DNA of 64,000 nt from the IMG/VR virus record IMGVR_UViG_3300025902_000014, positions 1 to 64,000 of that record; one strand, given 5' to 3'. The number at the start of each line of letters is the position of its first letter. Within the stretch, counting starts at the first letter, position 1. This document shows positions 6,293 to 51,293 of this stretch, one piece after another. The position numbers were made by a program, and so were the translations under genes. The DNA comes from a virus. Taxonomy: Duplodnaviria > Caudoviricetes. Under the pieces are notes generated by a model, which worked only from the letters and a program-made list of their open reading frames with translations, was not told the DNA's origin and did no database searches.

Positions 6293-7095
6293 GCAGGGAG
6301 ATCCGGTCCCTCGCGGCGCGGCATCCCTTCGAGGTCCGCTACCGGGCTCGGGAGCTGTACCTGCGGGGGATTTCTCTGGCCGACATCCCCGAGCTGATCG
6401 GGCGGGAGCTGGACGAGAAGAACGCCATGCAGGCCAAGGAGGCCGGGCTGCCTGCACCCCCGCCGACAGAGCGGCTCGCCCCCCGGGTGGTCCGGTACTG
6501 GTTCGACGAGGGGAAGTGGAGCCACTACCGGAAGTCCACGGAACGGGTGGTCCTCAAGGAGCAGGTCAACCGGATCAAGCGGGAGTTCTCGGAGCGGATG
6601 CGGATTCAGGCCGCCCGGCTTCGCCTGAACCAGTCCGTGGTCGAGAGGTACTTCTACAAGCAGGAGCTGGGTGAGAAGGGGGAGGCCCTCTTCCGCCCGG
6701 ACGGCACTCCCAAGGTCGTCATCAAGACCCCCGAGGACGCGCCGATGGACATGGCCGACACCGTGCGCCTCCACCTCGCCGGGATCAAGCTGGACATCGA
6801 GCAACTGAAGGTGGCCGGGGACATGCTGGGTGGGTTCGTTCCGAAGGTTTCCCCCGAGGACTTCACCCTCGGGGCAGCCCCGCCTCCGCTCGCCCGGACC
6901 CGGGCCATCACCCCGGCCCCCGTGGAAGTCCCTGAGAGCCCCGTGGAAGTCCCGGCTTCGACCCCCGAGCCCGAGCCTTCCCCGAAGCCGAAGCGCACCC
7001 GGAAGCCCCGCGCCGTCGTCGTGGAGCCCGAACCCGTCGTTGCCCCCGAGCCCCCCGCGAAGAAGAAGAGAAAGAGGAGGAAGATTCATGCCTGA
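6289..7095 (+). CDS. N-terminal HTH protein, possible terminase small subunit; Pro-rich and basic tail
   Basis: ARELYLRGISLADI...VVRYWFDEGKW resembles TerS-type HTH; follows ParB-like gene. Confidence 0.5.
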   Translation: MSREIRSLAARHPFEVRYRARELYLRGISLADIPELIGRELDEKNAMQAKEAGLPAPPPTERLAPRVVRYWFDEGKWSHYRKSTERVVLKEQVNRIKREFSERMRIQAARLRLNQSVVERYFYKQELGEKGEALFRPDGTPKVVIKTPEDAPMDMADTVRLHLAGIKLDIEQLKVAGDMLGGFVPKVSPEDFTLGAAPPPLARTRAITPAPVEVPESPVEVPASTPEPEPSPKPKRTRKPRAVVVEPEPVVAPEPPAKKKRKRRKIHA

Positions 7096-12832: not shown

Positions 12833-13201
12833 ATGCGTGTGACATCGAAGCTGAGAACCACGAAAGAGCAGGTGCTCATGGCCGCGAGGCTCAAGCCTCC
12901 GGCCCACCACTTCCCGAGGAGCGAGCCGCACGAGGTCTGCCCCTTCATTACCCTGAACTTCGAGGAGAGGCAGGCCATCATCCGGCTGCTGGAGTACGGG
13001 ATCGAGGGGACGACCACCCCGATTCGCCGGGCCAGCGGGAAGTCCCTCGTTCTCTACAACGACCTCCACAAGCGGATTTCGGCCGTTCACGCGACCGTGA
13101 TCCAGAACCTCATCAAGGAGAGCAACCGGATCTGGAAGGCGACGAAGCGGGAACGCGAGAAGCAGAAGAAGCTGGCGGAGAAGCAGACGATCGGGACGTG
13201 A
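12833..13201 (+). CDS. hypothetical protein
   Basis: ATG after AAAGGAG. Confidence 0.65.
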   Translation: MRVTSKLRTTKEQVLMAARLKPPAHHFPRSEPHEVCPFITLNFEERQAIIRLLEYGIEGTTTPIRRASGKSLVLYNDLHKRISAVHATVIQNLIKESNRIWKATKREREKQKKLAEKQTIGT

Positions 13202-20667: not shown

Positions 20668-21408
20668 ATGACGGAGGAAAAGAGGACTCTGGAGACCCTG
20701 ATTCGGGAGATCGGGAAGTGGAACCGGGAGACCTTCCCGGGGAGCACGGTCAAGTCCAAGGCGGAGCACCTCCGGCGCGAGGCCATCGAGCTGGCCGAGA
20801 CCCCCGGGGATGAGAGCGAGATGGCCGACATCTTCATCCTGTGGGCCGGGATCGTGGACCTCTTGGGGGTGGACTACGTCCGGGCGATCGAGAAGAAGAT
20901 GGCCAAGAACTACAAGCGGAAGTGGAAGGCCCCGGACGAGCACGGGGTCATCGAGCACCTCGAAGAGGGGGAGGACGATGCGCCTCCGTCCCCGCCTCTG
21001 AAGACCCCGATCCCGGGTGCCCTCGACAAGGTGAACAGCCATCAGCTCGTCCTCTACGTGAAGAACATGGTCATCGACTGTCTGGCTCCTTTCGCCTACG
21101 AACCGAATGGCTCCAAGACGTGGGCGGGCATGACGACCCGCGTGGAGAAGTTCCTCTACTCCCTCATGGCCAAGCACCTCCTCTCGGATTTCAGGGTCAT
21201 CTGCAACGAGCACACCACGACGAAGGAGATGCAGGCCCGGGGGGAGATGGGGCTGCACCTCTACTACCGTCAGAGGCCCACGCTGGAGTTCATCGGGCTG
21301 CACTTCGTTCTTCGCCCGAACGACACGGAAGAGCCCGTCCAGACCCAGCAGGAAGACGTCGTCATCAACCTCAACCCCCCGTACGACGGGGAAGAGGTCG
21401 GCCCGTGA
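20668..21408 (+). CDS. MazG-like dATP/dGTP pyrophosphohydrolase (DUF550-like) fused to a tail-sheath C-terminal-like domain
   Basis: N-term WNRETFP...HLRREAIE...EMADIFIL...KMAKNYKRKW; C-term VNSHQLVLYVK...FAYEPN...TW...FRVICNE...EFIGLHF. Confidence 0.75.
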   Translation: MTEEKRTLETLIREIGKWNRETFPGSTVKSKAEHLRREAIELAETPGDESEMADIFILWAGIVDLLGVDYVRAIEKKMAKNYKRKWKAPDEHGVIEHLEEGEDDAPPSPPLKTPIPGALDKVNSHQLVLYVKNMVIDCLAPFAYEPNGSKTWAGMTTRVEKFLYSLMAKHLLSDFRVICNEHTTTKEMQARGEMGLHLYYRQRPTLEFIGLHFVLRPNDTEEPVQTQQEDVVINLNPPYDGEEVGP

Positions 21409-22240
21409 GAATCGACGGGATGAAAGTTCCCGGCACGATCAGCCTCCTGTTCTGGCTGGCCGTCATTCTCATTTTCGTGGCCGTGGTATGGGAGACCCGG
21501 GCGAAGCACAACTTCATGAAGGCGTGTCTCGACGACGGCAAGAAAGAGTACGAGTGTGAGGCCATGTGGCGCGGGGGGTACAGGTGATCGAGCCGACGAA
21601 GTGCCCCCTCTGCGGGTGCATCCTCCTGTACGGGAAGTTCGAGTTTACGGGGCACAACCCCGAGACCTGCCAGACGTGGACGAAGGTCCGGATTCGGGAT
21701 CTCGAACAGGCCCTCCAGAATCAGATTCTGGAGACCGCCCGGCTCCGGGACATGATCGCCCGGCACGAGTGCAAGGTGGACTAGATGCTCGATCGGCTGA
21801 ACCAGATCTAGACGTCCTACTGGCTGGGGTTCATCGGGGTGATGAATTTCTCGCTGGGGATGATCTGGTACCTGTGGTGCAAGGACCGCGAAGAGAAGAA
21901 CAGGAGAGTGGAAGAACATGTCCGACGAGAAGCTGCCCGGGGATACGTCCCATCCGATCAACAGCCTCCTGATGCTCGGGCTGCTGGCCCCCGCCCTCCT
22001 GAAGGCGGACATCGAGAAGTCCCAGCTTCGGGCCAAGGCCATCCTCGACCACGCTGACGCCACCCTAGAATCATCCGTCCTCCTCGCGAAGTGCCTCCCG
22101 TTCCTCCGGACGCTGGAGGCCAAGAAGCTCCGGGAGGAAGTTCTGAAGAACCTCGCCCTCGTCCACGAGAAGGCGGAAGTTCGGAAATCCTTCACGCGCA
22201 CGGACGGCTGACGTGACTATCCTCCTGAAGGAGGCCGCCC

Positions 22241-23743
22241 ATGGCCGTCAGGAAGCAGAGTGCCGCAGTCCGAACCCAGTCTGGCCCGGGAGAGGTGGCT
22301 GGTCCCCAGATCGTCAATGGTCTCCAGACGTTCCTCGCCGGTTTTCTCGCGAAGGCCCCGGTCGGCGGGGCGGGCATGGAACTCCTCGTCAACGAGGAAG
22401 AGATCTCCGTGGACCCGGCGGAAACCACCGTCTACTCCACGAAGAAGCTCCTCCCGGCTGCGTCCATCCTCCTCGGGGTGACGGCTCGCGTGACGGAGGA
22501 GATCCTCGACGAGGTCTACGCCGTCGGAGGCATGTCCATCGCCGGGGTCGGGGTTCTCGACGAAGAGTTCATGATCGACAATCAGGGCTTCGTCTTCAAG
22601 CATGGCCGGATCGGGCAGGGCTGGATCAACGGCGTGGCGAGCCCCTACGCGGTCGGTCAGGTTGCCGTCAGTGGCCCGGCGGCTCTGGAAGACACCCTCA
22701 CGGTCGGGGACCAGACGTACACCGTCAAGCCGATCCGGACCGGGGCCGGGGAAGTCACGGGGCTGACGAGCCCCTACGCCACTGGCACCTTCGAGGTGGG
22801 CGGGGCGGTCACGGCCGACACCGAGACCTTCACGATCGGGACCACGGTCTACACGTTCAAGGCGGCTCGGACGGGAGCAGGGGAAGTCACGGTGGGGGTC
22901 ACCCCTGCCGAGACGGCGGCCAACATGATCGCCGCCATCAACCTCGACCAGTCGGCGGAAGTGGTTGCTTCCCTCGTCCCCGAGACGACCACCGTCCTCG
23001 TGACGGCTGTTGCCGCCGGGGCTCCGGGACTTCTCGCCCTCGCCGAGACCACGGCGAACGTTCTCGTGAGCGGGGCCTTCCTCGCCTACCCGGACGTCGT
23101 GACGGCTTCGGACCTCGTGGACAACCTGATCGCCGCCATCAACCTCGACCAGTCGGACGAGGTAGTGGCCACCCGCCCGGACCTCCAGCAGGACATTCTG
23201 GCGCTGAGGGCCGTGGCGGAAGGGGCTCCCGGGGAGCTGGCCACTGTCGCGACCGGGGCGGTCATCTACTGTGCGGAGGCCACCCTGCTCCTGCCGGTGA
23301 TGGATACGGCCACCCTCCGGGCGAACATCATCACGGCCATCAACCTCGACCTCGCGGACCGGGTTGTGGCCTCGGAAGGGGTTGCCCCCGAGGACATCGT
23401 CCTGACATCGCTCGTCTCGGGCACCCCCGGGGCGTGGGCCATCACGAACGAGGGTCCGCTCACGAACATCACCTTCACGGACTTCGAGCTTCCCAGCAAC
23501 GACCTCTCGTGGACGATGGGAGACGAGGACACGCCGGACCGGTTCGGAACGGCTCTGGACAACCGTCTCGGGGCGCAGGTGGTCTACACCGGCCACTGGG
23601 ACACCCCGGCCTTCGAGCAGGAGATGGCATCCTCGATCGGCATCACGACATCGGCCACTCCCTTCACGGGGAAGGTCATCGCCACGGTCTTCGCCCTCAA
23701 GTTCCACCCGGCAGTGGGTGTGGCCCCTCTCGCGCCCGAATGA
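22241..23743 (+). CDS. putative virion structural/decoration protein with internal repeats
   Basis: acidic Thr/Ala/Gly/Val-rich; repeats TLTVGDQTYT/TFTIGTTVYT, RTGAGEVT x2, IAAINLD x3; AAGGAGG RBS. Confidence 0.65.
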   Translation: MAVRKQSAAVRTQSGPGEVAGPQIVNGLQTFLAGFLAKAPVGGAGMELLVNEEEISVDPAETTVYSTKKLLPAASILLGVTARVTEEILDEVYAVGGMSIAGVGVLDEEFMIDNQGFVFKHGRIGQGWINGVASPYAVGQVAVSGPAALEDTLTVGDQTYTVKPIRTGAGEVTGLTSPYATGTFEVGGAVTADTETFTIGTTVYTFKAARTGAGEVTVGVTPAETAANMIAAINLDQSAEVVASLVPETTTVLVTAVAAGAPGLLALAETTANVLVSGAFLAYPDVVTASDLVDNLIAAINLDQSDEVVATRPDLQQDILALRAVAEGAPGELATVATGAVIYCAEATLLLPVMDTATLRANIITAINLDLADRVVASEGVAPEDIVLTSLVSGTPGAWAITNEGPLTNITFTDFELPSNDLSWTMGDEDTPDRFGTALDNRLGAQVVYTGHWDTPAFEQEMASSIGITTSATPFTGKVIATVFALKFHPAVGVAPLAPE

Positions 23744-23750
23744 GTCATCG

Positions 23751-23779
23751 AGCCCCCCGGTCATCTTGATTGGGGGGCT
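23751..23779 (+). terminator. hairpin (terminator) overlapping next promoter
   Basis: AGCCCCCCGGTCA...TGATTGGGGGGCT. Confidence 0.6.
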
Positions 23780-23808
23780 TGACATTTTGATCTTGTCCGA
23801 GGTAGCAT
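23779..23808 (+). promoter_or_regulatory. promoter TTGACA-N18-TAGCAT
   Basis: near consensus. Confidence 0.7.
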
Positions 23809-23830
23809 CCACGGCCAAGGGGTAAAGACG

Positions 23831-24130
23831 ATGACTGGTCCCAAGGAAGCCTTCTACGACGCGAACATCTCCCCCCTCATGGACGACGTGATCCGCTTCT
23901 GCAAGGCGCAGGGCATCTCGATGCTGGCCTCCTTCGAGCTGGACATCGAAGAGGACGACCCCGACTGCCCGCTGCTCTGCACGACTCAGATCCTCCTGCC
24001 GGACTGCCAGAGCACTGTGCTGAAGAGGGCCGCGAACATCATCTACCCCGGCCCCTCGGTGTGCCTCGCGGAGACGATCGAGACCCTCCCGGACGGGGCG
24101 AAGAAGGTCACGATCGCGAGGATCTCGTGA
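23831..24130 (+). CDS. hypothetical phage protein
   Basis: KEAFYDxxISPLMxxVIxxCK pattern; behind promoter. Confidence 0.7.
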   Translation: MTGPKEAFYDANISPLMDDVIRFCKAQGISMLASFELDIEEDDPDCPLLCTTQILLPDCQSTVLKRAANIIYPGPSVCLAETIETLPDGAKKVTIARIS

Positions 24131-24421
24131 GCGATCCCGTTCGCCTCCTCGAAGACCTCGAACCCTACCTCGACGACCTGAGCACGTGGGAGACGGAGTT
24201 CGTGGAAAACATCACGACTCGCATCGCGTCCAAGCAGGAGCTGACCGAGAAGCAGCTCGCCAAGCTCGAAGAAGTCGTTGAGAGGCACACCCGCTGGTAT
24301 CCACCCCCAAAGGTGTGAAAATCCTCCTGTGGTTCATGGCCTACGCGGCGGTGGCGATTCTGTGCCTCGTCATCGGCTCGTGGTTCTGGATGAAGAGCAC
24401 GGTACGGTAGAAGGAGAGAAA

Positions 24422-24772
24422 GTGCCACGTCACGAGATCGGAACGAAGGTCTACGCCATCTACGGTTCGACCGAAGCCACGAAGACCCTCAAGGTGCTCG
24501 GCCCGGGGACGTACGTGGGCAACGAGATCCCGACGACGGCTGTCGGCTGGCTGGCCGAGGCTGCCGTCGAGGGGAAGATGAAGAACCCGAAGATCCTCCT
24601 CGACAACGGGGACGTGGTCTGGGGGTGCGAGTGCTGGTGGGGGGTCCGCGAGGGCGGAGAGCAGCAGGTCGAGGCTTACAAGAAGGACGGCTGGACCATC
24701 GAGACGATCCGGATCGAGGACGAGCGGGCCAAGCACCGGGCCGAGGTCAAGGCGGCCGAGGCGGGGAAGTGA
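24422..24772 (+). CDS. hypothetical phage protein (NPKIxLDNGxVVWGCECWW)
   Basis: AAGGAG RBS. Confidence 0.7.
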   Translation: MPRHEIGTKVYAIYGSTEATKTLKVLGPGTYVGNEIPTTAVGWLAEAAVEGKMKNPKILLDNGDVVWGCECWWGVREGGEQQVEAYKKDGWTIETIRIEDERAKHRAEVKAAEAGK

Positions 24773-25304
24773 AGACGCCCGAGCACATCTACCAGCCCGC
24801 GTGCGCTCGCTGCCGTGACGAGGCCGGGAAGGATCGAGCTGGAGTCACGGACACCTCGCTTTGCAACTGGCACACCAACGATCTCGTCCTGAGCCTACGC
24901 GCCGAGGTCGAGCGGCTGAAGAAGGCGCTGGCGGCTTGCACGGAGCGGCTCCGCCATCTACACGGGCTTCGCATGGAGGGCGAGCCAAAGGCGCTCGACT
25001 TTAGCCATGAGTTTGTCCTCATACGAAAGGCGCGAACGGCGAACCTCTCCGCTCCGGCCGAGGAGGAGGGGCGCGATGCGTGACGCGCTGGCCGTGGTGT
25101 GCCCGGTGTTCGTGTGCAGCGCTCGGCGCGGCGCCCCCTGCATCACGAAACGATGGCGAGCGAAAGACGGGTATCGGTTTGTCATCACGACACAGAGGGA
25201 CAAGCCCCACGCCGCCCGCGTCCGCGCGGCCGAGCGCGAGGAGCGCGGGGAGGAGAAGGAACGTGAGGCACACATCGCAGAGATCAGCACACGGGAGACG
25301 CTCA

Positions 25305-25721
25305 ATGACGACTGATGCAGCCCCCGCTTCCATCTCCGCCCTCATCGCCGAGGGGCGCAGGCTGATCGAGGCAGCGACGCCGGGGCCGGTGGAGACGAGC
25401 CTCCACGAGAAGCTCACGACCGTGGGCGACACGAACCATTGGACGGTGAAGGAGCATGAGTTCCCGCAGCCGCCATACGAAGGCCAACTGACCGAGGAGT
25501 GGGGCGTCTATCCACCTCTCGGAGAAGCCGGTCCCGTTGCGCTCGTTAGTGGGCCACACAACGCCGCTCTCTTCGTCTTCGCCGTCAACAACCTCCCGGC
25601 GCTCCTCGACGTGGCCGGTGCTGCGGATGCGGTGTCCAGCTCCGTGACGATGGCGCAGGAGCGCGAGGCAAAGGACGCCCTCGACTCCGCCCTCTCCCGG
25701 CTGCGGGGGGTGAGGTCGTGA
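25305..25721 (+). CDS. Ead/Ea22-like hypothetical protein
   Basis: AATPGP...NAALFVFAVNNLPALLD. Confidence 0.55.
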   Translation: MTTDAAPASISALIAEGRRLIEAATPGPVETSLHEKLTTVGDTNHWTVKEHEFPQPPYEGQLTEEWGVYPPLGEAGPVALVSGPHNAALFVFAVNNLPALLDVAGAADAVSSSVTMAQEREAKDALDSALSRLRGVRS

Positions 25722-25899
25722 GCGAGACCCGCGAGAACCACTGGGCTCACCTGATGGTCGCGATCGGGCTGCTCGTGACGGCATTCGGCACGATGGTCGC
25801 GGTGCAGATACCGCCCGGACCCGCGCGCCTCGCCCTAGTCGCGCTCGCAGCATCGTCGTTCTGGTACGGATGGGTGGCGCGCAGCAAGGAGCAGAAGCC

Positions 25900-26229
25900 G
25901 TGACCGCGCCCGCCTCGCGCATCGCGGAGGTCGTGGCGGAGGGAAGGAGGCTTGAGGAGTCCGCCGCCTTTGTCGGTCGCGAGTCGGTTCCGTGGGAGGA
26001 GTTCTCGGACGCCGGTGCGCGCGTTGAAGCCTTCTACACCGAGCATGGCCCGGCGCTCCTCGCCGTCGCGGAGGCTGCGGTGGAGTGGGAGGCGGCGGAC
26101 GCGGAGCAGCGCCGCGTCCCGGCGTGGTCGCGCGACACGGATCTGTTCGAGCGCATGTTGTTCCGGTCCCAGTCAGCGACGCGAGCCCTTCGCGCCGCCG
26201 TCCGGGGAGAGGAGAAGACGAATGGATAG
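25900..26229 (+). CDS. hypothetical protein, paralog of 25305-25721
   Basis: shares AEGRRLxE and PALLxVAxAA. Confidence 0.55.
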   Translation: MTAPASRIAEVVAEGRRLEESAAFVGRESVPWEEFSDAGARVEAFYTEHGPALLAVAEAAVEWEAADAEQRRVPAWSRDTDLFERMLFRSQSATRALRAAVRGEEKTNG

Positions 26230-26725
26230 CGCGCGGAAGATGGCCGAGGAGGCGCTGGCGAGTTCCCTCGTCACGCTGTCCAACAAGCCGAGATACGCCC
26301 ACCTCTTCGATGAAGTCTCGAATCTCCGAGACGCTCTCCGCGCCCTCCTCGCCCGGAGGATCACGCTCGACGGTCTGACGCGTGTGCAGAAGATCGCACT
26401 CGCCCTGCGCGTCTGCGAGGAGACGGACCCGAAGGGGGAGGTCGCCGCGCGGTACGTGTGCCGTGGCGGCCAGAAGGGAGGGGAGTGATGCTCCGTTACC
26501 TCATGTGCCGTCGGGTGCATGACCCGGCATCGGGCGAGATCTTCCGCTCCTTCTACACGACGACCGATCCCGAAGCTGTCGAGCGCGATCTTCTGGGCGG
26601 CGGCTACGGGCAGGGATTCGACCGGACCGAGTGCATCGGGATCGAGGTTGTGGACAACGACGCCGCCCTCCGGAGCGACGGGCGATGAGCACGCCCAGTC
26701 TTCCGGCGGCGAAGTAACTTTCGAC

Positions 26726-26754
26726 TTGACCCGGAATACTTGAAGTTGTAATCT
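26726..26754 (+). promoter_or_regulatory. promoter TTGACC-N17-TAATCT
   Basis: AT-rich gap. Confidence 0.7.
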
Positions 26755-26775
26755 TACATCCAAGGAGTAAAGACG

Positions 26776-28389
26776 ATGAAGACCGGCACTCTCCCCACCA
26801 CCTACCCGGAGCTGCACGACCCGGACCAGTACGAGGACTTCCTCCTCGGGATTCAGGAGACGTTCCTCGCCCGGACGGTGAAGAACGGGATGCGTCTCTT
26901 CACGACGGACGCCGCGAACCTCTTCGAGAACTTCCTCTTCGCTCTCCCGGCGGACGTGCAGGCACACTACACGTGTCACGCCTGCCGGAAGTTCGTGGAG
27001 GCGTACGGCGGCCTCGTGGCCATCGACGACGAGGGTGCTCTCATCCCCGTGATGTGGAACCCCGACACGGACATCACCCCGAAGCTCTATCGGCCCGCCG
27101 TTCGGGCGCTGGAGGAGAAGGTCCGGAAGGCCAAGGTTACCGGGGTCTTCCTCACGACCACCCCGGTCTGGGGTCAGCCGGTCACGGGGCCGTGGCACCA
27201 CATGCACGCCCTTCCCATGAAGGAGTGGCTTTTCAAGGGCACGACCCTGAAGAACGCGGATCAGGCCATGGCCGAGAAGCTGGAGGAGCGAGGGATGCTC
27301 CTGCGCGGGCTGGCCGAGTTCTCCAAGGACACGGTGGCCAAGGCCCTCCCCCTGCTGGAGGCCGATGCCCTCACCCGGTCCGAGAAGGTGCTCGGGATCG
27401 CCAAGTGGCTTCTCGCCCTCCACGAGGCCCGGGAGGAGACGAAGCGCGAGGACTTCCGTGAGAACCTCACGTGGAAGGCCGTGGCGGAAGCGCCGCCCGG
27501 CTGGTGCCACGTCAGGTCCACCATGATCGGCACCCTCCTCTCGGACATCGCCGAGGGGCTGCCGTTCGCCACCGTCGAGCGGAACTGGCGTCTCAAGATG
27601 GACCCGCTGGCCTACATGCGCCCGAAGGCCGCCCCGACCGACGGGCAGCTCGCTCAGGCCGAGAAGGTCATCAAGGAGCTGGACGCTCAGGGGTCGCTGG
27701 CCCGCCGGTTCGCCCGGATCGACGAGGTCAAGCTGCTCTGGTCCCCCAAGGCCCTCCCCGAGGGGAAGTCCGAGGGCGTCTTCGGCCACCTGAAGAAGAA
27801 TGCCGCCCGGTCCACCCCGGACCCGACGCTGGAGCCCCCGGCGGTCACGATCACGTGGGAGAAGTTCGTCCGCACGGTCCTGCCGTCGGCCCTGAAGATC
27901 GACTACCTCGTCCCGGTCACGGCTCCGTTCATCGGGCTCGTCACGGCGGTCAATCCCGAGGCCCCGCCGATCATCCAGTGGGATCACGCGGAGGCCCGCA
28001 ACCCGGTCTCGTGGTTCGTCTACCCGGGCAACTCCATGGCCGTCCAGTGGGGGCTCGTCCCGCGCCAGCGGGTCGAGGTCACCGGGGTCACCCTCTTCCC
28101 CCACATGTGGAACGAGAAGGTCGTCGCGGAGCAGCACTCCAAGGGGGCCATCTTCCTCCTGAACGGGTGCGTGGACACGAAGGACTCGGGCAACGCCCTC
28201 TTCCCCGAGATCCTGAAGTCCGAGTTTCACGGCATCCGGGCCACCATCGAGGCGTACTCCCAGAAGGAGAAGCTGCACGGGCGGAAGGAAGCGTCGGCTT
28301 GCGGGATCGACCTGCGGACGTGGAATCAGACCTTCCGGGTGACCACGGCGACGTCGAGGATCAGCTACAAGATCGACAGGTGGGACTAG
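26776..28389 (+). CDS. large hypothetical phage protein (HYxCxxCRxF motif)
   Basis: 537 aa, strongly biased codon usage, own promoter and RBS. Confidence 0.85.
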   Translation: MKTGTLPTTYPELHDPDQYEDFLLGIQETFLARTVKNGMRLFTTDAANLFENFLFALPADVQAHYTCHACRKFVEAYGGLVAIDDEGALIPVMWNPDTDITPKLYRPAVRALEEKVRKAKVTGVFLTTTPVWGQPVTGPWHHMHALPMKEWLFKGTTLKNADQAMAEKLEERGMLLRGLAEFSKDTVAKALPLLEADALTRSEKVLGIAKWLLALHEAREETKREDFRENLTWKAVAEAPPGWCHVRSTMIGTLLSDIAEGLPFATVERNWRLKMDPLAYMRPKAAPTDGQLAQAEKVIKELDAQGSLARRFARIDEVKLLWSPKALPEGKSEGVFGHLKKNAARSTPDPTLEPPAVTITWEKFVRTVLPSALKIDYLVPVTAPFIGLVTAVNPEAPPIIQWDHAEARNPVSWFVYPGNSMAVQWGLVPRQRVEVTGVTLFPHMWNEKVVAEQHSKGAIFLLNGCVDTKDSGNALFPEILKSEFHGIRATIEAYSQKEKLHGRKEASACGIDLRTWNQTFRVTTATSRISYKIDRWD

Positions 28390-28390
28390 C

Positions 28391-28558
28391 AGAAACGGCC
28401 CGTGGCAGGGCAATGCGGTAAGGGGGTAGTGGTTCCGGCCCCCCTCCCGCCGGACGTGTTCAAGCAGAGGGGGGAGCGCATATCAGCCGGACCACACCGG
28501 TTCCCCCAAGCAGGAGTCAACCTGAGAAGGCCACGTTCGGCACGCCACGGGTTTTTCT
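28391..28558. ncRNA. putative structured intergenic RNA
   Basis: nested stems CCCGTGGC/GCCACGGG, GTGGTTCCGGC/GCCGGACCAC, CCCCCCTC/GAGGGGGG, CAGG/CCTG. Confidence 0.55.
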
Positions 28559-28586
28559 TGACAGGGCAATCTTGATCTTCTAGACT
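28558..28586 (+). promoter_or_regulatory. promoter TTGACA-N17-TAGACT
   Basis: near consensus. Confidence 0.75.
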
Positions 28587-28605
28587 GCCCCATGGAGTAA
28601 ATACG

Positions 28606-29283
28606 ATGCCCACCAAACCCGTTCACCAGTGGCCGAAGTGGCCCGCCCTCCTCGTCGAGGGGGACAGGGTCACGAAGGATCAGGCCGCCGAGATCATCGT
28701 CCGCACCTTCCCGAGGTACTTCAGCACGAACGACCGGGAGTGGGAGAAGCTCGTCCGCAAGAAGTTCGGACTTCCGGCGGTGCGCGAGTCGTCCTCCATG
28801 CCGACTTTCGAGCAGGAGGAAAAAGCCTTCGACGCTCTCGGGATTCTCCGCCTCAACTACCTCCAGAACGACTGGATCATGTCTGCGTGGGTCGGGGGTC
28901 CGCACGGCTGGGTGGACTGGAACGGGCGAGTCTTCACGGCCAACTACAACATCGGGAAGTGGCCTTCCCCGGGGGATGTCCGCCGGGACTGGGACGCCAT
29001 CGCCAAGGCGTTCCCCTTCCTCAAGCTCAAGGCCCAGCTCATGAGCGGGGAGACGTGCGAGGAAGGTACCCACGTCATCGCCGAGTACAAGGTGGCCCGG
29101 GGCAAGGTCGTTCGGTCCAAGGTTCCCGGCAAGGTCATCTGCGGCGGCCCGGCGGACGAGGTCGAGGACTTCGCTCGGCACCTCGCCTTCCCGAGTTCCC
29201 TGCGCGAGCGTGGGTGCGATGAGGCCCAGCTCGACCACGCCATCGAGATCGTCAAGGCAAAGCTGAAGGGAGCGAAGAAGTGA
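28606..29283 (+). CDS. hypothetical phage protein (KWP...GGPHGW...NIGKWPS)
   Basis: behind promoter and RBS. Confidence 0.75.
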   Translation: MPTKPVHQWPKWPALLVEGDRVTKDQAAEIIVRTFPRYFSTNDREWEKLVRKKFGLPAVRESSSMPTFEQEEKAFDALGILRLNYLQNDWIMSAWVGGPHGWVDWNGRVFTANYNIGKWPSPGDVRRDWDAIAKAFPFLKLKAQLMSGETCEEGTHVIAEYKVARGKVVRSKVPGKVICGGPADEVEDFARHLAFPSSLRERGCDEAQLDHAIEIVKAKLKGAKK

Positions 29284-29747
29284 CCCGCTACGCCACCAAC
29301 ACGACGGTCTCGTCCGAGCGGTCCCGGGGAGAGATCGAGGGGCTCCTCCGGAAGTACGGGGCCGGGAAGTTCGGGTATCTCTGGGAGGGGGAATCTGCGA
29401 TCATCGTCTTCGAGATGAAGGCGCGGCGGGTGAAGTTCGTCCTTCCTCTCCCCAACCAGAACGACCCGATGTTCTTCAAGACCCCGACGGGGCGCACGAA
29501 GCGCAACCCCAACGGCTCCCTCGAAGCGTGGGAGCAGGCGTGCCGGTCCCGGTGGCGGGCTCTGGTCCTGTGCATCAAGGCCAAGCTGGAGTCCGTGGAG
29601 CCCGAGATCGAGACCTTCGAGGAGGCTTGGTTTTCACATATACTCCTCCCGGACGGGCAGACGGCCGGGGAGCACCTCATCCCCCAGATCGCCGAGATCT
29701 ACCAGACCCGCAAGATGCCGAAGATGCTCATGGGAGGAGTCGGATGA
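29280..29747 (+). CDS. hypothetical phage protein (YAxxTxVSxERSRxEIE...IKAKLE)
   Basis: family-like motif; GTGA overlap. Confidence 0.75.
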   Translation: MTRYATNTTVSSERSRGEIEGLLRKYGAGKFGYLWEGESAIIVFEMKARRVKFVLPLPNQNDPMFFKTPTGRTKRNPNGSLEAWEQACRSRWRALVLCIKAKLESVEPEIETFEEAWFSHILLPDGQTAGEHLIPQIAEIYQTRKMPKMLMGGVG

Positions 29748-30193
29748 CCGAAGCCCTGTTCTGGGACTGCCGGGACGCTGAGAACCTGACCCACAGCTCC
29801 CCCGAGGAGGCCATCGAGGAGTACCTCGACTACCTCTACGAGAAGGATGTCTCGCTCCTCGACCAGATCAAGAAGATCTGCCCGCTGAAGGTCACCGGGT
29901 ACGCCCGGGAGGAGATCACCCCGGAGTTCATCTCGGGGATGGCCCACCGGTTCGCGGAGAAGTTCACCGAAGAGATCGAGGAGGAGTACGGCGACCCCGA
30001 GGGGGACCACCCGATGCTCTCGCCCGAGGACGAGAAGTCTCTCCCGGTGGCCTTCCAGCTCGCGTTCTCCCAGATCCTCGCGAAGGCCACGGTCTGGCGG
30101 TGCAAGGTCGTCGAGACGAAGACCTTCACGGCCGAGGAAGTCGAAACGATGATGAGGGAGTCGAACCCGAGTTGGTTCGAGGAGGAAGCGTGA
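29744..30193 (+). CDS. acidic hypothetical protein
   Basis: ATGA overlap, GGAGG RBS. Confidence 0.65.
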   Translation: MTEALFWDCRDAENLTHSSPEEAIEEYLDYLYEKDVSLLDQIKKICPLKVTGYAREEITPEFISGMAHRFAEKFTEEIEEEYGDPEGDHPMLSPEDEKSLPVAFQLAFSQILAKATVWRCKVVETKTFTAEEVETMMRESNPSWFEEEA

Positions 30194-30543
30194 AAATCAG
30201 CACCGAAGACTTCACCGACGAGCTGGAGTGCCCCGGATGCGGGGGGCGCAACCTCCACCACCGGGAGGTTCACGTTTTTGAACGGAGGGAAGACGAGTCC
30301 ACTGGAGTCCGGACCCGGATTTACGGTAAGGAGACCTGCGTGGACACGAGCATGAACGGGAACCCGAGTTCCCGTCGGGATGGGCTTTCCATCTTTTTCG
30401 ATTGCGAGACGTGTGACGCGCTGCCCGTCCTGAACATCTTCCAGCACAAGGGTACGACCTTCTTGGAGATGAGCATCCCTCGGCGGAAAGGGCTCAACCC
30501 GAAAGACCCCAAAGCGGTTGCTTGTTACCCGAAAATGCCGTGA
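30190..30543 (+). CDS. zinc-ribbon hypothetical protein (CPGC...NPSxRRxG...CExC...QHKG)
   Basis: GTGA overlap. Confidence 0.65.
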   Translation: MKISTEDFTDELECPGCGGRNLHHREVHVFERREDESTGVRTRIYGKETCVDTSMNGNPSSRRDGLSIFFDCETCDALPVLNIFQHKGTTFLEMSIPRRKGLNPKDPKAVACYPKMP

Positions 30544-30763
30544 AGATGAAAACCGAACTTCCGAACGGGGCGAGCACCGAGTCCTGTCTCCGCATCACGG
30601 TAGGGCCGGATGGGGCTACACGCACGGAGATGGGTGCATCCCCGAATGAGCGGGCCATCCAGATGGCGGAGGAGTTCTTCCGGTTCAGCGTGGAGCAGAA
30701 GGACACTTTTCAGAATCATCTGGACGAACTGACGTACGAGTCCATGCAGGACGAGGAGGAGTC

Positions 30764-31276
30764 ATGAGCGAAACGACACGGCGTGGAATTCTGGGGCTCT
30801 TTGGCACGGCTGCGGCGACCGCTGTGGCCGCCCCGCTGGCGGCCAGCCTGCCCACCCCCCACATCGAGGCCCCGCCCCCGGAGCTGCCCCCCTGCCCCCC
30901 GAGGCGGCACTGCCGGATCTGCGACAGGGTCTTCGACAAGGGCGAGAAGCAGATGCCCTTCCTCGACTTCTTCATCGTCGAGCGGAAGGGGCCGAAGGGG
31001 ACTTCCGTCGAGGCCATGGCCCTCGCCAAGGCGACCGGGCTGGTGGTGGCCGGAGCCCTGACCGGGGACGAGCACGAGAAGGTTCCGCTCCGGGACTTGG
31101 AGATCACGAGCGGGGTGGACATGTGCTGCGAGAAGTGCTTCGTTCTCTACACGCACGGCCAGCTCGTTCATCACCCCGATGGGACGGTGGCCATGGAGAA
31201 GCCCGCGCTCTCGGTGGCGGAGCAGAGGGTCTGGAAGAACTACCGGGAACGCATGATGCGGTTTCCGGGTGTCTGA
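30764..31276 (+). CDS. hypothetical protein with twin-arginine-like N-terminus and CxxC pairs
   Basis: TTRRGILGLFGTAAATAVA. Confidence 0.6.
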   Translation: MSETTRRGILGLFGTAAATAVAAPLAASLPTPHIEAPPPELPPCPPRRHCRICDRVFDKGEKQMPFLDFFIVERKGPKGTSVEAMALAKATGLVVAGALTGDEHEKVPLRDLEITSGVDMCCEKCFVLYTHGQLVHHPDGTVAMEKPALSVAEQRVWKNYRERMMRFPGV

Positions 31277-31280
31277 GTTT

Positions 31281-31312
31281 TGATTGACACTTCAAGCTCG
31301 CACTGATAGGCT
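31281..31312 (+). promoter_or_regulatory. promoter TTGACA-N17-TAGGCT, copy 1 of a 32-bp exact repeat
   Basis: TGATTGACACTTCAAGCTCGCACTGATAGGCT also at 34016-34047. Confidence 0.85.
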
Positions 31313-31330
31313 CCCCTGAAGGAGTAGAAC

Positions 31331-31849
31331 GTGACGAAGAAAACGAATCCCGTGTTCAAGCTCGGAGACATCGTGAGCTGGATCTCGCAGGCGCAGGGCT
31401 GCACCCGCAAGAAGGTCGGGGAGATCGTCGAGGTCGTCCCGCCCGGGGAGTACCCGGATCGCGATCGGTTCCTGCCCCTCTACAAGGGCTCGGGGGTCGG
31501 GCTCTGCCGCGACCACGAGTCCTACGTGGTCGAGGCCCGGCAGGTGTCTGGGCGGAAGACCAAGAAGATCTACTGGCCCCGGGTGAACCAGCTCCAGACG
31601 GAACGGATCGTCACAGGGCCTGTGACGATGTGCGACTCCTGTGACATCCCTGTTGCGGGTAGGCCCTACCCTCAGTGGCAGGTTCAGGTGGTGGACCCGG
31701 CGGGGACCATCGTGGGGGCGGTGAAGTTCGCCCCCGACATTGGCAAGGAGCTGGCCCGGATTCACGGGGTGGATGCCAAGGCTGAGATCGTGGGCATCAC
31801 CCTCACAGAGGTGGAGCGGATCTTGACCGAAGTCCTGAAGGAGAACTGA
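31331..31849 (+). CDS. hypothetical protein (SH3/KOW-like N-terminus)
   Basis: FKLGDIVSW...KxGEIVEVV...YWPRV. Confidence 0.65.
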   Translation: MTKKTNPVFKLGDIVSWISQAQGCTRKKVGEIVEVVPPGEYPDRDRFLPLYKGSGVGLCRDHESYVVEARQVSGRKTKKIYWPRVNQLQTERIVTGPVTMCDSCDIPVAGRPYPQWQVQVVDPAGTIVGAVKFAPDIGKELARIHGVDAKAEIVGITLTEVERILTEVLKEN

Positions 31850-32068
31850 TGCCCCAGACGAAGACCCAGAAGCGCGAGACTGCCCTTTGGAAGCTGGAGA
31901 GGGATCTGGCCGACCTGAAGACGGAAGTCCACCGTGAGCGGCTGCTCCAGCACTACAGAGCGTACGACAACCCGGTCGAGTTCGTGCGTCAGCTCATGGC
32001 CCGGCGCGAGAAGCGGATGGAGACCGAGATCACCAACCTCAAGAAGAAGCTCGGGAAGGAGTAGGACC

Positions 32069-32269
32069 ATGGCCATGGACAGACCGAAAGTGACCGTCAC
32101 CCAGATCGAACACGAGTGGCTCGTCCGGATCTTCGGGAAGAACGGGAGGCAGATCCTCTCGGACGAGACCCTCACGAAGAAGAGCTACGCCGTCAAGAAG
32201 GGGCGGGGGATCGCCAAGCAGCTCGGGGCCAGCCTCTGGGTCTCCGGGGTCTTCGTCGAGTCCTACTAG
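32069..32269 (+). CDS. YegP/DUF1508-like small protein
   Basis: WxVRIxGKNGRQIxSxETxTKKSYA. Confidence 0.5.
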   Translation: MAMDRPKVTVTQIEHEWLVRIFGKNGRQILSDETLTKKSYAVKKGRGIAKQLGASLWVSGVFVESY

Positions 32270-32276
32270 CCCGTCC

Positions 32277-32642
32277 ATGTGGTTCCAGAAGTTCATCGCT
32301 CCCGAGGGGTCCGACCTGAAGAGCCAGATCGTTCAGGTGGTCACCGAGGCGCTCAACCTTCAGATCGGCGAGCCGATCGACGACCAGACCTTGGACGTCA
32401 TCGTGGACACCGTCTTCGATGGGGTGGGCGAGATCTATGCCGAGGACTTCCTCGTGGAATGCTCGACCCGTAACAACCCCCCGGACCTCGTGGACCGGAA
32501 CGGCCTCGCTGTCCGGCTCATCTTCTTCGGGGAGGCCCACCCGAAGCCCGATGACCTGTATGGGAAGGTGGACATCCTGTTCGACCCCACGAATGGGAAT
32601 CAGACCCCCAAGGCCGAATGGCTGTCGGAGACCAGACGGTGA
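32277..32642 (+). CDS. stand-alone tail-sheath C-terminal-like fragment
   Basis: GEPIDDQT...DFLVECSTRNNPPDLVDRNGLAVRLIF resembles sheath F-x-V-x-C-D-xx-NN-x-P-xx-ID-x-N-x-L. Confidence 0.6.
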   Translation: MWFQKFIAPEGSDLKSQIVQVVTEALNLQIGEPIDDQTLDVIVDTVFDGVGEIYAEDFLVECSTRNNPPDLVDRNGLAVRLIFFGEAHPKPDDLYGKVDILFDPTNGNQTPKAEWLSETRR

Positions 32643-33061
32643 AGCTCGACGCTGTCCTCTTCATCTGCGACAAGCCGAATAAGAATGGGCGGATCTACTC
32701 CCGGGAGCTGGCGAACAGGATCGTCGAGCGGTTTCACGACATGCCCGATCTGTGCGGGCAGGTGGGGATGCCCGAGGACGGGAAGCTCCTCCTGAACAAC
32801 ATCAGCCACGTGGTCCGGGAGCTGAAGGTGACGGAAGTCGGGGAGGACTGGGGGCTCGTGGCGACCATCGAGACCCTTCCATTGGCAGAGAAGGGGCTGA
32901 CCCTCGCGAAGCTCTTGGAGGACGATGACACCCGCAAGCTCTACACCTTCCGGACTGCCGGAACCGGCACCCTGACCGAGATGCCGGACGGGACCGTCCG
33001 CATCAACAACGACTACGTGTTGGAGTCCGTGAACCTCGTCCCGGCCAAGGACGCCGCGTGA
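32639..33061 (+). CDS. catalytically degenerate gp21-like prohead protease paralog
   Basis: NKNGRIYS, GQVGMP (vs ELDHP), ETLP-KG-L, RTAGTG (vs SSRGEG), SVNLV (vs FDFV) aligned with 51290-53236. Confidence 0.8.
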   Translation: MKLDAVLFICDKPNKNGRIYSRELANRIVERFHDMPDLCGQVGMPEDGKLLLNNISHVVRELKVTEVGEDWGLVATIETLPLAEKGLTLAKLLEDDDTRKLYTFRTAGTGTLTEMPDGTVRINNDYVLESVNLVPAKDAA

Positions 33062-33381
33062 GCTTCCCCGGGCTGGAGCCCCCCTTCCTCGGGCTGCCGA
33101 TCACGAACCTCCTCAACGAGGAGGACGCACTCACGGCCATCCGGGCCGGGTTTGTTTACGTCCCGGACGTCCCATTTTTCGTGAACAAGCACCTGCCCTT
33201 CGAGTTCGTTCTCAAGCCCCACCTCGGTCCCCCTCTGCGGCTTCTGGCTCCGTCGTACGTGGACGGGCTGGAGATCGTGGCCCCGGAGCCGATCGTGGTC
33301 TTCAAGCCCGGGGTGTACGCCCGGAACTGGACCACCATCAAGATCCTGATCGAAAAACTGAATAGGAGAAACGGTCATTGA
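33058..33381 (+). CDS. small protein carrying major-capsid C-terminal-like motif
   Basis: NEEDAL...AGFVYVPDVPFF vs MCP NADEAI...SGYVYAPWVPFY. Confidence 0.55.
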   Translation: MSFPGLEPPFLGLPITNLLNEEDALTAIRAGFVYVPDVPFFVNKHLPFEFVLKPHLGPPLRLLAPSYVDGLEIVAPEPIVVFKPGVYARNWTTIKILIEKLNRRNGH

Positions 33382-33737
33382 GCGGAACTGTGATCGAGTT
33401 TGGGAAGGGGCAGGTCGTCACGACCATCATGTCCCGGGGGATCGGCGGGCCGCTTCAGGGGCTCCTGCTCTCGTCCATCGAGGGGCGGCTCGAAGTGGGG
33501 GGCGTGCTCTCTCATCTCGAAGCGGACAAGGCGGTGCCCCTGACCCTTCTCTGGTTCAACGACCCGAAGTCCATCGACGTCCTGATCCACCAGCTCTCCA
33601 AGCTCCGGCTCTACTACGGGCGGCCCACGAAGGACACCGCCTGCCACGGCCGGGAAGTGGACGCTTTCCCCGTCCCGGACGACCTCTGCCTCGCGATCCC
33701 CGACGACAACCTCCCCCTCTTCAAGGCCGGGCTGTGA
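33378..33737 (+). CDS. hypothetical protein
   Basis: TTGA overlap, AGGAG RBS. Confidence 0.6.
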   Translation: MSGTVIEFGKGQVVTTIMSRGIGGPLQGLLLSSIEGRLEVGGVLSHLEADKAVPLTLLWFNDPKSIDVLIHQLSKLRLYYGRPTKDTACHGREVDAFPVPDDLCLAIPDDNLPLFKAGL

Positions 33738-34015
33738 AGAACCTGACCGTCGAAGAACTCAAGCCCTTTCAGGATCGGCTGGTTCCCTGCATCTGTGGGG
33801 GGCACCCGTCCCTCGCTATGTCGATCTGCGCCAAGCCCCAGACCTACTCCGTCCACTGCATGGGGGACGCCGGGCCGAACTGCTGGAAGTCCCCTCAGAC
33901 CCAGTCCCCCGAGGAGATGGTCCAGCTCTGGAACGGGGTAATGGAGGCCGCTCGGGCGGCTGGGCTGGCCTTCACCCATCCGCCCCGGGAGAAGTTCTCG
34001 GGCAACACCCTTTAC

Positions 34016-34047
34016 TGATTGACACTTCAAGCTCGCACTGATAGGCT
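34016..34047 (+). promoter_or_regulatory. promoter copy 2 (exact 32-bp repeat), leaderless GTG 34054
   Basis: identical to 31281-31312. Confidence 0.85.
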
Positions 34048-34474
34048 TCCTACGTGAGCACAGAGACCATACTCATCAACCTCGGCTCGGCAGTCCTCGC
34101 CTTTTTCTGGGTCAGGGCTTTTTCTCGTTGGATGGAGAAGCACGGGTGACGAATCCCGACATCCCCCTGACCATCCTTCACTGCGAGATCTGTGGGCACC
34201 CCCGGGCCATCTACGGGGCCAAGGAGACGGGCGGGTACTGCGAACGGTGCGCCCACACTGTGTCCACCCACGTTCTGCTCGTGGAGATCCGCACCGAGAC
34301 GGCGGACAGGCACGTGCCCTACCGGACGGGCCGGATCTTCGCGGTGAAGCGCGAGAAGTACGAGGAGAAGTTCCCGGATCGCAAGGGCACCCAGTGGTAT
34401 CAGGTGACCGAGGACGACCTGAAAGCCCTCATCCCCGAGGACGTCCTGAACGCTCCGGCCCCGGTGGAGATGAC

Positions 34475-34837
34475 ATGACCTTCGACGCAGAGAACGACCC
34501 GAAGCTCATCCCGGTCCTCGACGTCGAGCTGACCTCGAAGCCGGTGACCGCTCATCCGGGGAGGGAACTCGCGGCCGGGTGGAAGGTGGAAAAGGCCAAG
34601 CCGCTACAGGCGTTCTACTCCCCCGATGTCATGGACCAGATGTGGATGCAGATGCGGGTGGGCAACCGGGTGTGGCACCGCATCGCCGAGGGGGTGCCCC
34701 CGATCGAGGTGGTCATCCAGCGGATCTCCAACGGGCCGATCCCGAAACACTACTGCGAAGCCGTGGAAACGGGCTACCACTTCAAGCTCCGGCGGGACCA
34801 GCTCTGGTGGTCGGAGGCGTGTGGAGCCAAGGAGTAA
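34475..34837 (+). CDS. small protein with N-terminal major-capsid (gp23) fragment
   Basis: IPVLDVELTSKPVTAHPGRELAAGWKVEKAKPLQA vs MCP IPQIDLILTSTPVVARP-RKLRARWSIEAAAQLKA. Confidence 0.75.
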   Translation: MTFDAENDPKLIPVLDVELTSKPVTAHPGRELAAGWKVEKAKPLQAFYSPDVMDQMWMQMRVGNRVWHRIAEGVPPIEVVIQRISNGPIPKHYCEAVETGYHFKLRRDQLWWSEACGAKE

Positions 34838-35085
34838 AGACGTGAAGACAGCGAAGATCAAAATCCTCGTGGCCGTGGGTAGCAACGGTGACTGGGCGGC
34901 GAGTGGCTGGGGTCTGAAAGGCAAGGCTCCCGACAAGCGCAGCATCGAGTCCATGAAGGACACGGTCACCGACATGGTCGAGGCTGAGGACTACCAGTAC
35001 GTCTGGGTCGAGGCGGAAGTCCCGGTTCCCGAGATCGGAACCGTCTTCGGCAGCGTCATCAATACCGAGCCGTCTCGGTGATCCC

Positions 35086-35451
35086 ATGACGGGGTTCAGG
35101 ATGTTCCTGCGTCTCTCGGGGCCGCCGGGAAGCCCGGACTTCGAGCAGCCAGTCGCGGCCATGGATGTGGACTACATCCATCAGCTTCTGCACCTGAAAT
35201 TCAGGGTCGAATTTCCTCTCATCAAAGACCTCGAAACGTGGTGGACACACTCGCATCGCACGCTCCCGTTTCTCCATCTCGTCTGGGTGGACCCGGAAGG
35301 GGACGAGCAGAACAGCGTGTCCTTCGAGCAGTGCCACACCGCCCAGATCGCTACGACCACGGAATACTCCAGCCCGCAAGCAGTGACCGTGGCTCTTGAC
35401 CTCGTGTTCAGCAAGCCCAGCCGGAGCTTTCCGGGGTCCAGCGGATGGTGA
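35086..35451 (+). CDS. tail-tube (gp19)-like degenerate protein
   Basis: LETWW...LVWVDPEGDEQNSVSFEQC...EYSSPQAVTVALDLVF resembles T4-type tube C-terminal half. Confidence 0.5.
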   Translation: MTGFRMFLRLSGPPGSPDFEQPVAAMDVDYIHQLLHLKFRVEFPLIKDLETWWTHSHRTLPFLHLVWVDPEGDEQNSVSFEQCHTAQIATTTEYSSPQAVTVALDLVFSKPSRSFPGSSGW

Positions 35452-50816: not shown

Positions 50817-51293
50817 ATGCTGAACCGGGTGACCCAAGTCTTCTCCCCGTTCGGGTCGGGGGGCTTTCTCAGGCAGATGGCCGAGGCTGCGCTTCGGAAC
50901 GTCAAGGAGTTTGAACTCAAGGTCGGCTCCTCTGAGAAGAGCCCCTACGACTTCCCGGTGGAGAAGCTCGGGGATCTCATGCTGGTCAGCATCGACGAGG
51001 AAGGTACGGTCCTCCGGGCACGGACCGTCAAGAACTCTCCCGGGAAGGATTACCAGTGGGCGGGTCCATGCACCCCCAAGGCGAATCTGTTCCGTGTCCT
51101 GAAGTTCGTCGGGGATGACCCTCTCGACCGTCAGAAGTTTCTTGACTACGTCTACAACTTCCGGAACGTCCTGATCGACCTCAAGAAGGAAACCATCGTC
51201 GTCATCGACGAGAACACGGCGGAAGCGTTGACGGTCACCAGCGGGGTTCAGGCTCCTCGGGTGGCCGCCATCATGACCGCACTGGGACAGTGA
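50817..51293 (+). CDS. hypothetical head-module protein
   Basis: coupled to protease gene. Confidence 0.7.
   Translation: MLNRVTQVFSPFGSGGFLRQMAEAALRNVKEFELKVGSSEKSPYDFPVEKLGDLMLVSIDEEGTVLRARTVKNSPGKDYQWAGPCTPKANLFRVLKFVGDDPLDRQKFLDYVYNFRNVLIDLKKETIVVIDENTAEALTVTSGVQAPRVAAIMTALGQ

Follow-up and report, generated by a model that had tools for sequence, protein, structure and literature searches.

Six small open reading frames (ORFs), here called A to F, lie between positions 20,668 and 35,451 of the window, that is, the first 64 kb of the 96,313-bp IMG/VR virus record IMGVR_UViG_3300025902_000014 (CheckV completeness 67%). An initial annotation had taken them for look-alikes of four virion proteins, the tail sheath (A and B), the prohead protease (C), the major capsid protein (MCP; D and E) and the tail tube (F), with five of the six falling within about 3.2 kb, a span that we measured as 3,175 bp. 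Translations of these ORFs and of the genes around them were compared with Pfam, PHROGs, every ORF of the genome and, pairwise, their supposed parents (Table 1). Sheath, protease and MCP homologues and a fold-mate of the tube were found, so that the look-alikes stood for A, B, C and E by sequence and for F by fold; D could not be upheld as an MCP fragment, its likeness being limited to a motif of 12 amino acids (aa). The genome has separate genes elsewhere for the protease, the MCP, the sheath, the tube and a gp25-like wedge protein, which makes the mini-copies supernumerary.

Table 1. Coordinates of the small ORFs, of the promoter-like elements near them and of the corresponding structural genes (window positions unless marked as genome positions).
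Feature	Position	Strand	Size	Description and support
A	20668..21408	+	246 aa	MazG-like dATP/dGTP pyrophosphohydrolase (residues 12-100) fused to tail-sheath C-terminal domain (116-215, nt 21013-21312)
Promoter-like element 1	31284..31312	+		TTGACA-N17-TAGGCT; ahead of g31331 and the B-C-D string
B	32277..32642	+	121 aa	Free-standing tail-sheath C-terminal domain
C	32639..33061	+	140 aa	S77 (gp21-type) prohead-protease core, predicted catalytically dead; GTG start overlaps B stop
D	33058..33381	+	107 aa	Candidate likeness to MCP C-terminus via 12-aa motif only
Promoter-like element 2	34019..34047	+		Same sequence as element 1; precedes a hydrophobic ORF of 31 codons and the I-E-J-F string
E	34475..34837	+	120 aa	Residues 1-62 resemble own MCP 214-294; remainder unique
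F	35086..35451	+	121 aa	Predicted Hcp/tail-tube fold (structure models); fast-evolving
True prohead protease (parent of C)	51293..53236	+	647 aa	phrog_207 2.6e-41; PF03420 5.6e-13; PDB 5JBL (T4 gp21) 4.6e-8
True MCP, Gp23 family (parent of E)	53269..54693	+	474 aa	PF07068 3.3e-58; phrog_138 1.9e-60; T4 gp23 structures 2.7e-23
True tail sheath	66250-68769 (genome)		839 aa	Both Pfam sheath domains
True tail tube	79248-79745 (genome)		165 aa	
gp25-like wedge protein	85623-85997 (genome)			

The phage is uncultured and has a genome of ~144 kb, represented by an identical 144,067-bp sequence of the Joint Genome Institute (JGI), with 100% identical copies (L010-L012) in three JGI samples. The stretch is present in runs labelled as anaerobic-digester, activated-sludge and wastewater metagenomes. 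Genomic G+C is 64% and the + strand carries all called genes. It is a distant gp23-family myovirus, whose MCP is at most ~36% identical to those of Bacillus phage SP-15, Listeria phage LIS04 and others. The true protease consists of an S77 domain and a fused C-terminal part of ~420 aa, probably the scaffold; SP-15-like phages show the same layout, with protease ORFs of ~560 aa adjoining the MCP gene. Neither megablast nor blastn matched the flagged region to any of 50,697 phage records, and pattern scans of IMG/VR using C, E and the MCP found no relatives. Two diverged relatives were obtained from Logan assemblies, L006 (~91% nucleotide identity, syntenic over 27.8-42.7 kb) and L007 (87%).

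Relation of the small ORFs to virion proteins

The N-terminus of A matches PF04447 (9e-12 in the Pfam scan), and its sheath part aligns without gaps to residues 728-827 of the phage's own sheath (31% identity, BLASTP 2e-15, z of 26 against shuffled controls). The PHROG profiles for tail sheath recognise it as well (phrog_10581, 6e-12; phrog_23, 7e-10), and tblastn with this part retrieved 871 phage records, all among those listed being annotated as tail sheath. Other PF04447 homologues lack a sheath domain and carry different partners; the fusion of MazG and sheath domains, an unusual architecture by itself, is specific to this lineage.

B matches residues 745-804 of the own sheath (BLASTP 2e-5, shuffle z 7.2) through the motif D[FY]xVxC..NPPDxxDRN. 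The tblastn matches of B are weak, and nearly all of the 329 phage records that they cover are annotated as tail sheath; residues 18-105 meet the C-termini of phage sheaths there, cyanophages included. Both A(116-215) and B align to the last ~100 residues of a T4 gp18-type sheath, the Phage_sheath_1C or handshake domain, and keep only these, the full multi-domain subunit being absent in both. In a sheath, this C-terminal domain links the subunits of the mesh and is the hub that accepts strands from neighbouring subunits. Unlike gp18-type sheath proteins, A and B have no other sheath domains and are encoded outside the tail module, and A is fused to a nucleotide pyrophosphohydrolase. The assignment of B as a sheath initiator of the gp25/TssE kind was ruled out, as it does not match PF04965 and is unlike the gp25-like wedge protein of this genome.

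C matches the profile of the head maturation protease (phrog_207, 6.7e-7), the phage's own protease (1e-6 over 132 aa, shuffle z 8.8) and, by tblastn, other phage proteases (1e-4); PF03420 gave no match at E<=1. The triad of T4 gp21 is His-Ser-Asp (PMC5694885), and its counterparts in C were located by aligning the own protease to T4 gp21 (PDB 5JBL) and then C to the own protease. The initial annotation had described a protease paralog without catalytic residues, and indeed His is replaced by Met (ELDHP to VGMPE), Ser by Thr (SSRG to RTAG) and Asp by Asn (FDFV to VNLV). The same Met, Thr and Asn are found unchanged in four orthologs and, judging from these substitutions, C should be catalytically dead. 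Orthologs that are 98, 74 and 68% identical start at MKLD, placing the beginning of C at GTG 32639, 18 kb from the head module with the true protease and MCP genes (51.3-54.7 kb). In a further wastewater variant, the indels in C are all compensated or in-frame.

Truncated protease copies have been seen before. The phiKZ-like phages carry diverged, truncated and presumably inactive 'cryptic' prohead-protease paralogs (SPN3US gp117, 201phi2-1 gp206 and PhiPA3 gp143, the last two of 145 and 136 aa), which Thomas and co-workers called unprecedented then (PMC5694885). Going by the description of that class, C and the SPN3US gp117 type are both second, diverged copies of ~136-145 aa that lack the C-terminal prohead-targeting part and the catalytic His and are encoded away from the head genes. 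Unlike gp117, an S80 protein that keeps Ser and Asp, C belongs to the S77 (T4 gp21) lineage and has lost all three triad residues; it is also accompanied by sheath-, capsid- and tube-derived mini-proteins, of which PMC5694885 describes none for the phiKZ-like paralogs. C is an S77-lineage addition to the cryptic truncated protease paralogs and the only one of the mini-copies with a published precedent. The earlier statement that no operon of structural mimics has been described has to be qualified to that extent; for the rest, literature searches found no paper on sheath-, capsid- or tube-derived mini-proteins or on structural-protein decoys. What had been an isolated oddity, a cryptic protease paralog to which no function has been assigned since 2017, is in this way widened to a set of virion-protein mini-copies in an S77-type phage.

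The best database match of C is a second protease-like ORF (242618-242992, L018) in the 595-kb uncultured megaphage LR756511.1, with 33% identity over 129 aa (7e-15). The two have in common the 'GMP' motif created by the His to Met change and a SHVVxxLK motif, and the megaphage copy lies far from the MCP-linked protease of its genome, as C does from its own. Unlike C, the copy in this unannotated record keeps the Ser and Asp positions and is part of an open frame of 304 aa that extends further at both the N- and the C-terminus. That C is nearer to this copy (7e-15) than to the protease of its own phage (1e-6) suggests a conserved His-less subfamily.

A weaker extra candidate was noticed at 23831-24130 (+ strand), where a 99-aa protein of phrog_20111 (function unknown) resembles the central part of C over 60 aa (ETIETLP..., BLASTP 2e-5 pairwise, shuffle z 7.1). 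One wastewater variant lacks precisely this accessory gene (23833 joined to 24132, run X5), amounting to a presence/absence polymorphism.

The resemblance of E to the MCP reaches BLASTP 6e-9, phmmer 7e-6 and a shuffle z of 13.5. The segment is the strand leading into the spine helix, equivalent to about residues 256-300 of T4 gp23; its motif is retained in the L006 ortholog, and the C-terminal half of E is unrelated to the MCP. E matches neither the Pfam Gp23 family (PF07068) nor anything in the 50,697 phage records, resembling only the MCP of its own phage. For D, the motif AGFVYVPDVPFF compares with SGYVYAPWVPFY at the MCP C-terminus at a pairwise E of 0.003 and a z of 3.4, a level reached by 10 of 1000 shuffles. 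The AlphaFold2 model of D was unusable (predicted local distance difference test, pLDDT, of 38), the ESM Atlas had no model or match, and a homolog search returned the same genome only. Conserved and with a low ratio of nonsynonymous to synonymous substitution rates (dN/dS 0.22), D is nevertheless a real gene. Another 120-aa ORF, at 12839-13201 (+ strand), holds a 47-aa stretch similar to MCP 318-356 (SLIEASNKIFQATRR against NLIKESNRIWKATKR; BLASTP 1e-4 pairwise, shuffle z 6.1) and may be a further capsid-derived piece, the match being weaker and borderline after multiple testing.

F is predicted to fold as an Hcp/tail-tube protein, and two independent models agree on this. Its ESM Atlas model matches Hcp, TssD and gp19 with TM scores of 0.67-0.75. 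The AlphaFold2 model (pLDDT 69.8) gave Foldseek matches to Hcp at 1e-4 and, in an exhaustive VIA search, a Z of 12.3 with a root-mean-square deviation of 2.0 Å over 99 of the 121 residues; the top 50 VIA matches were without exception Hcp, tail-tube or tube-like baseplate proteins. The modelled beta-sandwich-plus-helix fold is that of Hcp/TssD and of tube proteins (T4 gp19; PDB 7YW0, 5XHH), and the size is like that of small Bacteroides Hcp. Unlike Hcp/TssD and T4 gp19, F has no detectable membership in a sequence family and is fast-evolving, and the tube of this phage is a separate gene. No match was obtained at E<=1 with Pfam (including PF05638, PF17642 and PF06841) or PHROGs; the Atlas feature search pointed to TssD (0.93), which we take as a lead only. 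F shows no sequence likeness to the own tube (z 0.3), and an exhaustive HMMER search of 1.84 billion representatives returned a single ortholog plus a spurious repeat protein (P0010). The product of g31331 had also been considered as tube-like and was rejected as too weak (z 4.2, phmmer 0.0096), its C-terminal half being absent in L006.

Integrity, selection and transcription

When all late-region proteins were compared by phmmer with all early-region proteins, only four matches below 1e-3 appeared, namely sheath-A, MCP-E, sheath-B and protease-C. Together with the shuffle controls, this indicates that the pattern is not due to chance. The copies are far shorter than the proteins they resemble (140 of 647 aa for C, 121 of 839 for B, 120 of 474 for E and 121 of 165 for F) and are 24-33% identical to their parents. 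Such divergence makes them old, and neutral relics of that age would not have stayed open.

In both L006 and L007, each of the six ORFs is intact. As had been remarked earlier, they are also mostly translationally coupled. Stop/start overlaps (GTGA, ATGA) link B-C-D with the following genes G and H, and I with E. Gaps of 4 nt precede J and F, and the end of F shares 7 nt with the beginning of the gene after it (35445). The dN/dS ratio, which had been proposed as a check, is lowest for D (0.22) and highest for F (0.55), with B (0.30 and 0.32), E (0.31) and C (0.34) in between. Throughout, dN is significantly lower than dS (Fisher p 1e-5 to 1e-2), so that neutral evolution was not seen. These comparisons show the copies to be real genes under purifying selection. 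A, B, C and E resemble genes in both G+C at third codon positions (GC3) and coding score; the coding score of F is low.

These data bear directly on whether the ORFs might be relics or neutral by-products, i.e. pieces of structural genes copied by illegitimate recombination that remained open since stops are rare at 64% G+C, or that were recruited for unrelated roles. High G+C does yield many long spurious ORFs, E and D carry only short parental segments, the coding score of F would fit, and short-piece paralogy is expected from recombination in large phages. However, at 24-33% identity to the parents neutral relics would be frameshifted, and what is found instead is six ORFs intact in the relatives with dN significantly below dS, gene-like GC3 and coding scores for A, B, C and E, frame-preserving indels in C and conserved start/stop coupling. 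Given the purifying selection, pure relics are unlikely, and we consider the whole explanation improbable.

Gene content around the copies changes quickly. L006 carries two inserted genes (1974-2537, 187 aa; 6566-6976, 136 aa) without similarity to the proteins of this genome, and its g31331 ortholog is cut to 94 aa, which together show rapid gene flux in the region.

The cluster was originally described as lying behind two identical early-type promoters. The identity is exact (a 29-nt repeat, of which none is expected by chance), and 'early-type' could not be maintained. There are ~20 similar TTGACA-type promoters genome-wide, several of them before leader-tagged head genes and in the tail region, and because the TTGACA-N17-TAnnnT type also occurs in the head and tail regions it defines no early class. 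A second motif, (C/G/A)ACTATC, is found 22-30 nt before gene starts, mostly beyond 42.6 kb, in the structural half (window 42643 and 56909; genome 74341, 78029, 78395, 81403 and others), with one copy at 22215 before the 500-aa gene at 22241. From its distribution it is a candidate late-promoter element; it is not present in the 31-36 kb cluster, an absence compatible with non-late expression and no proof of it. The stretch 31216-33071 is covered at 100% identity by contigs of a single metatranscriptome library. As these show neither timing nor strand, they hint only weakly at transcription; nothing can be read from the missing cover beyond 31.2-33.1 kb in run X13, or from contig depths generally. 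None of the fragments has the leader MKxxTxLxExLxE of the capsid-cargo genes, and they were ruled out as leader-tagged capsid cargo for that reason.

Nine nt after element 2, a GTG opens a 31-codon hydrophobic ORF (34056-34148; MSTETILINLGSAVLAFFWVRAFSRWMEKHG) that overlaps the start of the next gene and may encode a leaderless small membrane peptide. Many TTGACA-N17-TAnnnT sites have an ATG or GTG only 6-8 nt after the -10 box (window 18289, 20055, 36420, 39762, 45169 and 54785; genome 71545, 72998 and 73370). Such short spacing suggests that the mRNAs are leaderless, which is common in Actinobacteria and Deinococcus-Thermus and could point to the kind of host.

Possible roles of the mini-copies

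By their sequences, the genes are best described as selected, shortened and apparently non-catalytic paralogs ('pseudo-subunits') of self-assembling virion proteins. We judged them to be a class of independently retained mini-paralogs and not one proven co-functional system. A mechanism common to them can be proposed, which is also the most economical one. Presumably transcribed from host-type promoters among small accessory genes, apart from the head and tail modules, each copy would retain the binding surface of its parent without the parts needed to polymerise or cut, and would occupy the interface that normally receives the parent protein. For C this would be the L-x-E leader peptides or the protease oligomers, for A and B the sheath arms, for F the tube rings and for E the capsid neighbours or chaperones. 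Candidate partners are the assembly line of the phage itself, sensors of the host and the contractile machines of rivals. Whether each mini-copy does act through a surface inherited from its virion parent is, as far as the sequences allow us to judge, an even call.

Several observations weigh against this proposal. E keeps only ~45-60 aa of the MCP, which is too little for an HK97 fold (the A and P domains are absent), and it may be no more than a peptide recruited to some unrelated function. The origin of F could be a bacterial Hcp/TssD and not the phage tube, the best structural matches of its model being small Bacteroides-type Hcp. Conservation is uneven, with C and D 98-100% identical to L006 and F only 47% at the aa level, and this argues against one coordinated system. 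Finally, the four nearest cultured relatives, SP-15, LIS04, GXN1 and HSE3, were scanned with PHROG profiles, since PF03420 and PF17482 fail to detect C or A even here, and were found to have one protease and one sheath each and no extra copies of either; the copies are dispensable in that phage group.

If the inherited surfaces serve the phage itself, the mini-copies would be factors of its own morphogenesis. The dead protease would serve either the active protease or the ~25 cargo proteins with an L-x-E leader, as their receptor, holdase or timer, and the sheath and tube mini-domains would be chaperones or caps that prevent premature polymerisation. Dead protease paralogs are indeed known in phages with heavy protease-dependent head cargo (phiKZ-like), and here too there is a large leader-tagged family; the conservation of the His-less subfamily across distant phages fits as well. 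T4 gp21 forms oligomers and becomes part of the scaffold core (PMC9958956), and a dead subunit could co-assemble with a protease of this type. Against such a role, the genes are separated by ~16-45 kb from those for the head and tail and do not have the NACTATC motif that precedes many late genes, F and E are fast-evolving and lineage-specific, which is unusual for assembly factors, and related cultured phages manage without such copies. We regard this explanation as possible and doubtful.

The partner could also be the machinery of a competitor, in which case the copies would be dominant-negative poisons of co-infecting related phages, host tailocins or type VI secretion systems (T6SS), by way of a capping sheath domain or an Hcp-like subunit inserted into the assembly. 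The C-domain of A and B keep the strand-accepting hub of the sheath without the remaining sheath protein, and F is structurally closest to T6SS Hcp. Moreover, satellites use capsid-protein homologues to redirect the assembly of their helpers. However, A and B are most like the sheath lineage of their own phage and would threaten its own tail assembly, and poisoning seems to us a poor prospect.

Work since 2022 has shown that core virion proteins, among them those of the capsid and tail tube and the prohead protease, are recognised by immune sensors of bacteria, and to our knowledge few phage answers to this sensing have been described. Selected, non-functional-looking mini-copies of four such proteins are concrete candidates, be it as decoys, as assembly timers or as poisons of rival tails. 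As immune decoys, fragments made before or alongside the true virion proteins would bind host sensors in a non-activating way and blunt abortive infection. The capsid, the tail tube and many core virion proteins trigger Avs/STAND sensors, which bind the monomers at their assembly interfaces (preprint 10.64898/2026.01.04.697583), so that the sensed proteins are the very ones copied here. The fragments do not belong to the leader-tagged cargo, early expression would be compatible with the host-type promoters, and the accessory region is mosaic, with E, J and F only 47-70% identical between phages whose flanks are 97-100% identical, as expected of conflict genes. For these three, however, dS is high as well as dN (dN/dS 0.3-0.55), which indicates recombination with a diverged allele and not positive selection.

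The closest known parallel to E is the capsid-protein segments read by bacterial defences, i.e. the Gol peptide that activates Lit and the MCP recognised by Avs7/8/10 and CapRel. E, too, carries a conserved internal piece of a gp23-family capsid protein, here as a separate small protein; its piece lies outside both the Gol region and the A-domain, which Avs7, Avs8 and Avs10 reportedly grip. A mimic of Gol was ruled out by position, as E corresponds to about gp23 256-300 and Gol lies in the first quarter of gp23. Further points against decoys are that C-like copies are kept across very different phages, a better fit to a phage-intrinsic than to a host-specific role, and that literature searches found no phage decoy of the structural-protein kind.

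The preconditions of the decoy or interference idea do hold: the copies are true homologues or fold-mates, intact and selected, have no capsid-targeting leader and are encoded apart from the late structural genes. This neither supports nor refutes the decoy interpretation, which we think unlikely. The broader idea that large phages carry a recurrent, undescribed class of truncated inactive virion-protein mimics, expressed separately from the structural genes and acting as non-activating decoys for Avs/STAND, CapRel, DSR2 and CBASS or as caps poisoning rival contractile machines, we likewise put forward with little expectation that it is right.

Neighbouring genes

NCBIfam named none of the neighbouring small proteins except for an Xre-type helix-turn-helix protein at 35445. 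At 33734-34018, a 94-aa protein shows the pattern CxCGG...C...C followed by WN; it has no support from Pfam, PHROGs or NCBIfam, and to our eye is reminiscent of the zinc ribbons of Lar-type restriction alleviation proteins. A larger, conserved phage protein of the accessory region (26776-28389, 537 aa) strongly matches phrog_1735, a family of unknown function (1.6e-99), and is listed with DUF8224 in the public gene call. In the tail module, an endonuclease VII gene (phrog_2914, 2e-33) is located directly after the tail-tube gene, at genome 79749-80186 (L008 15749-16183).

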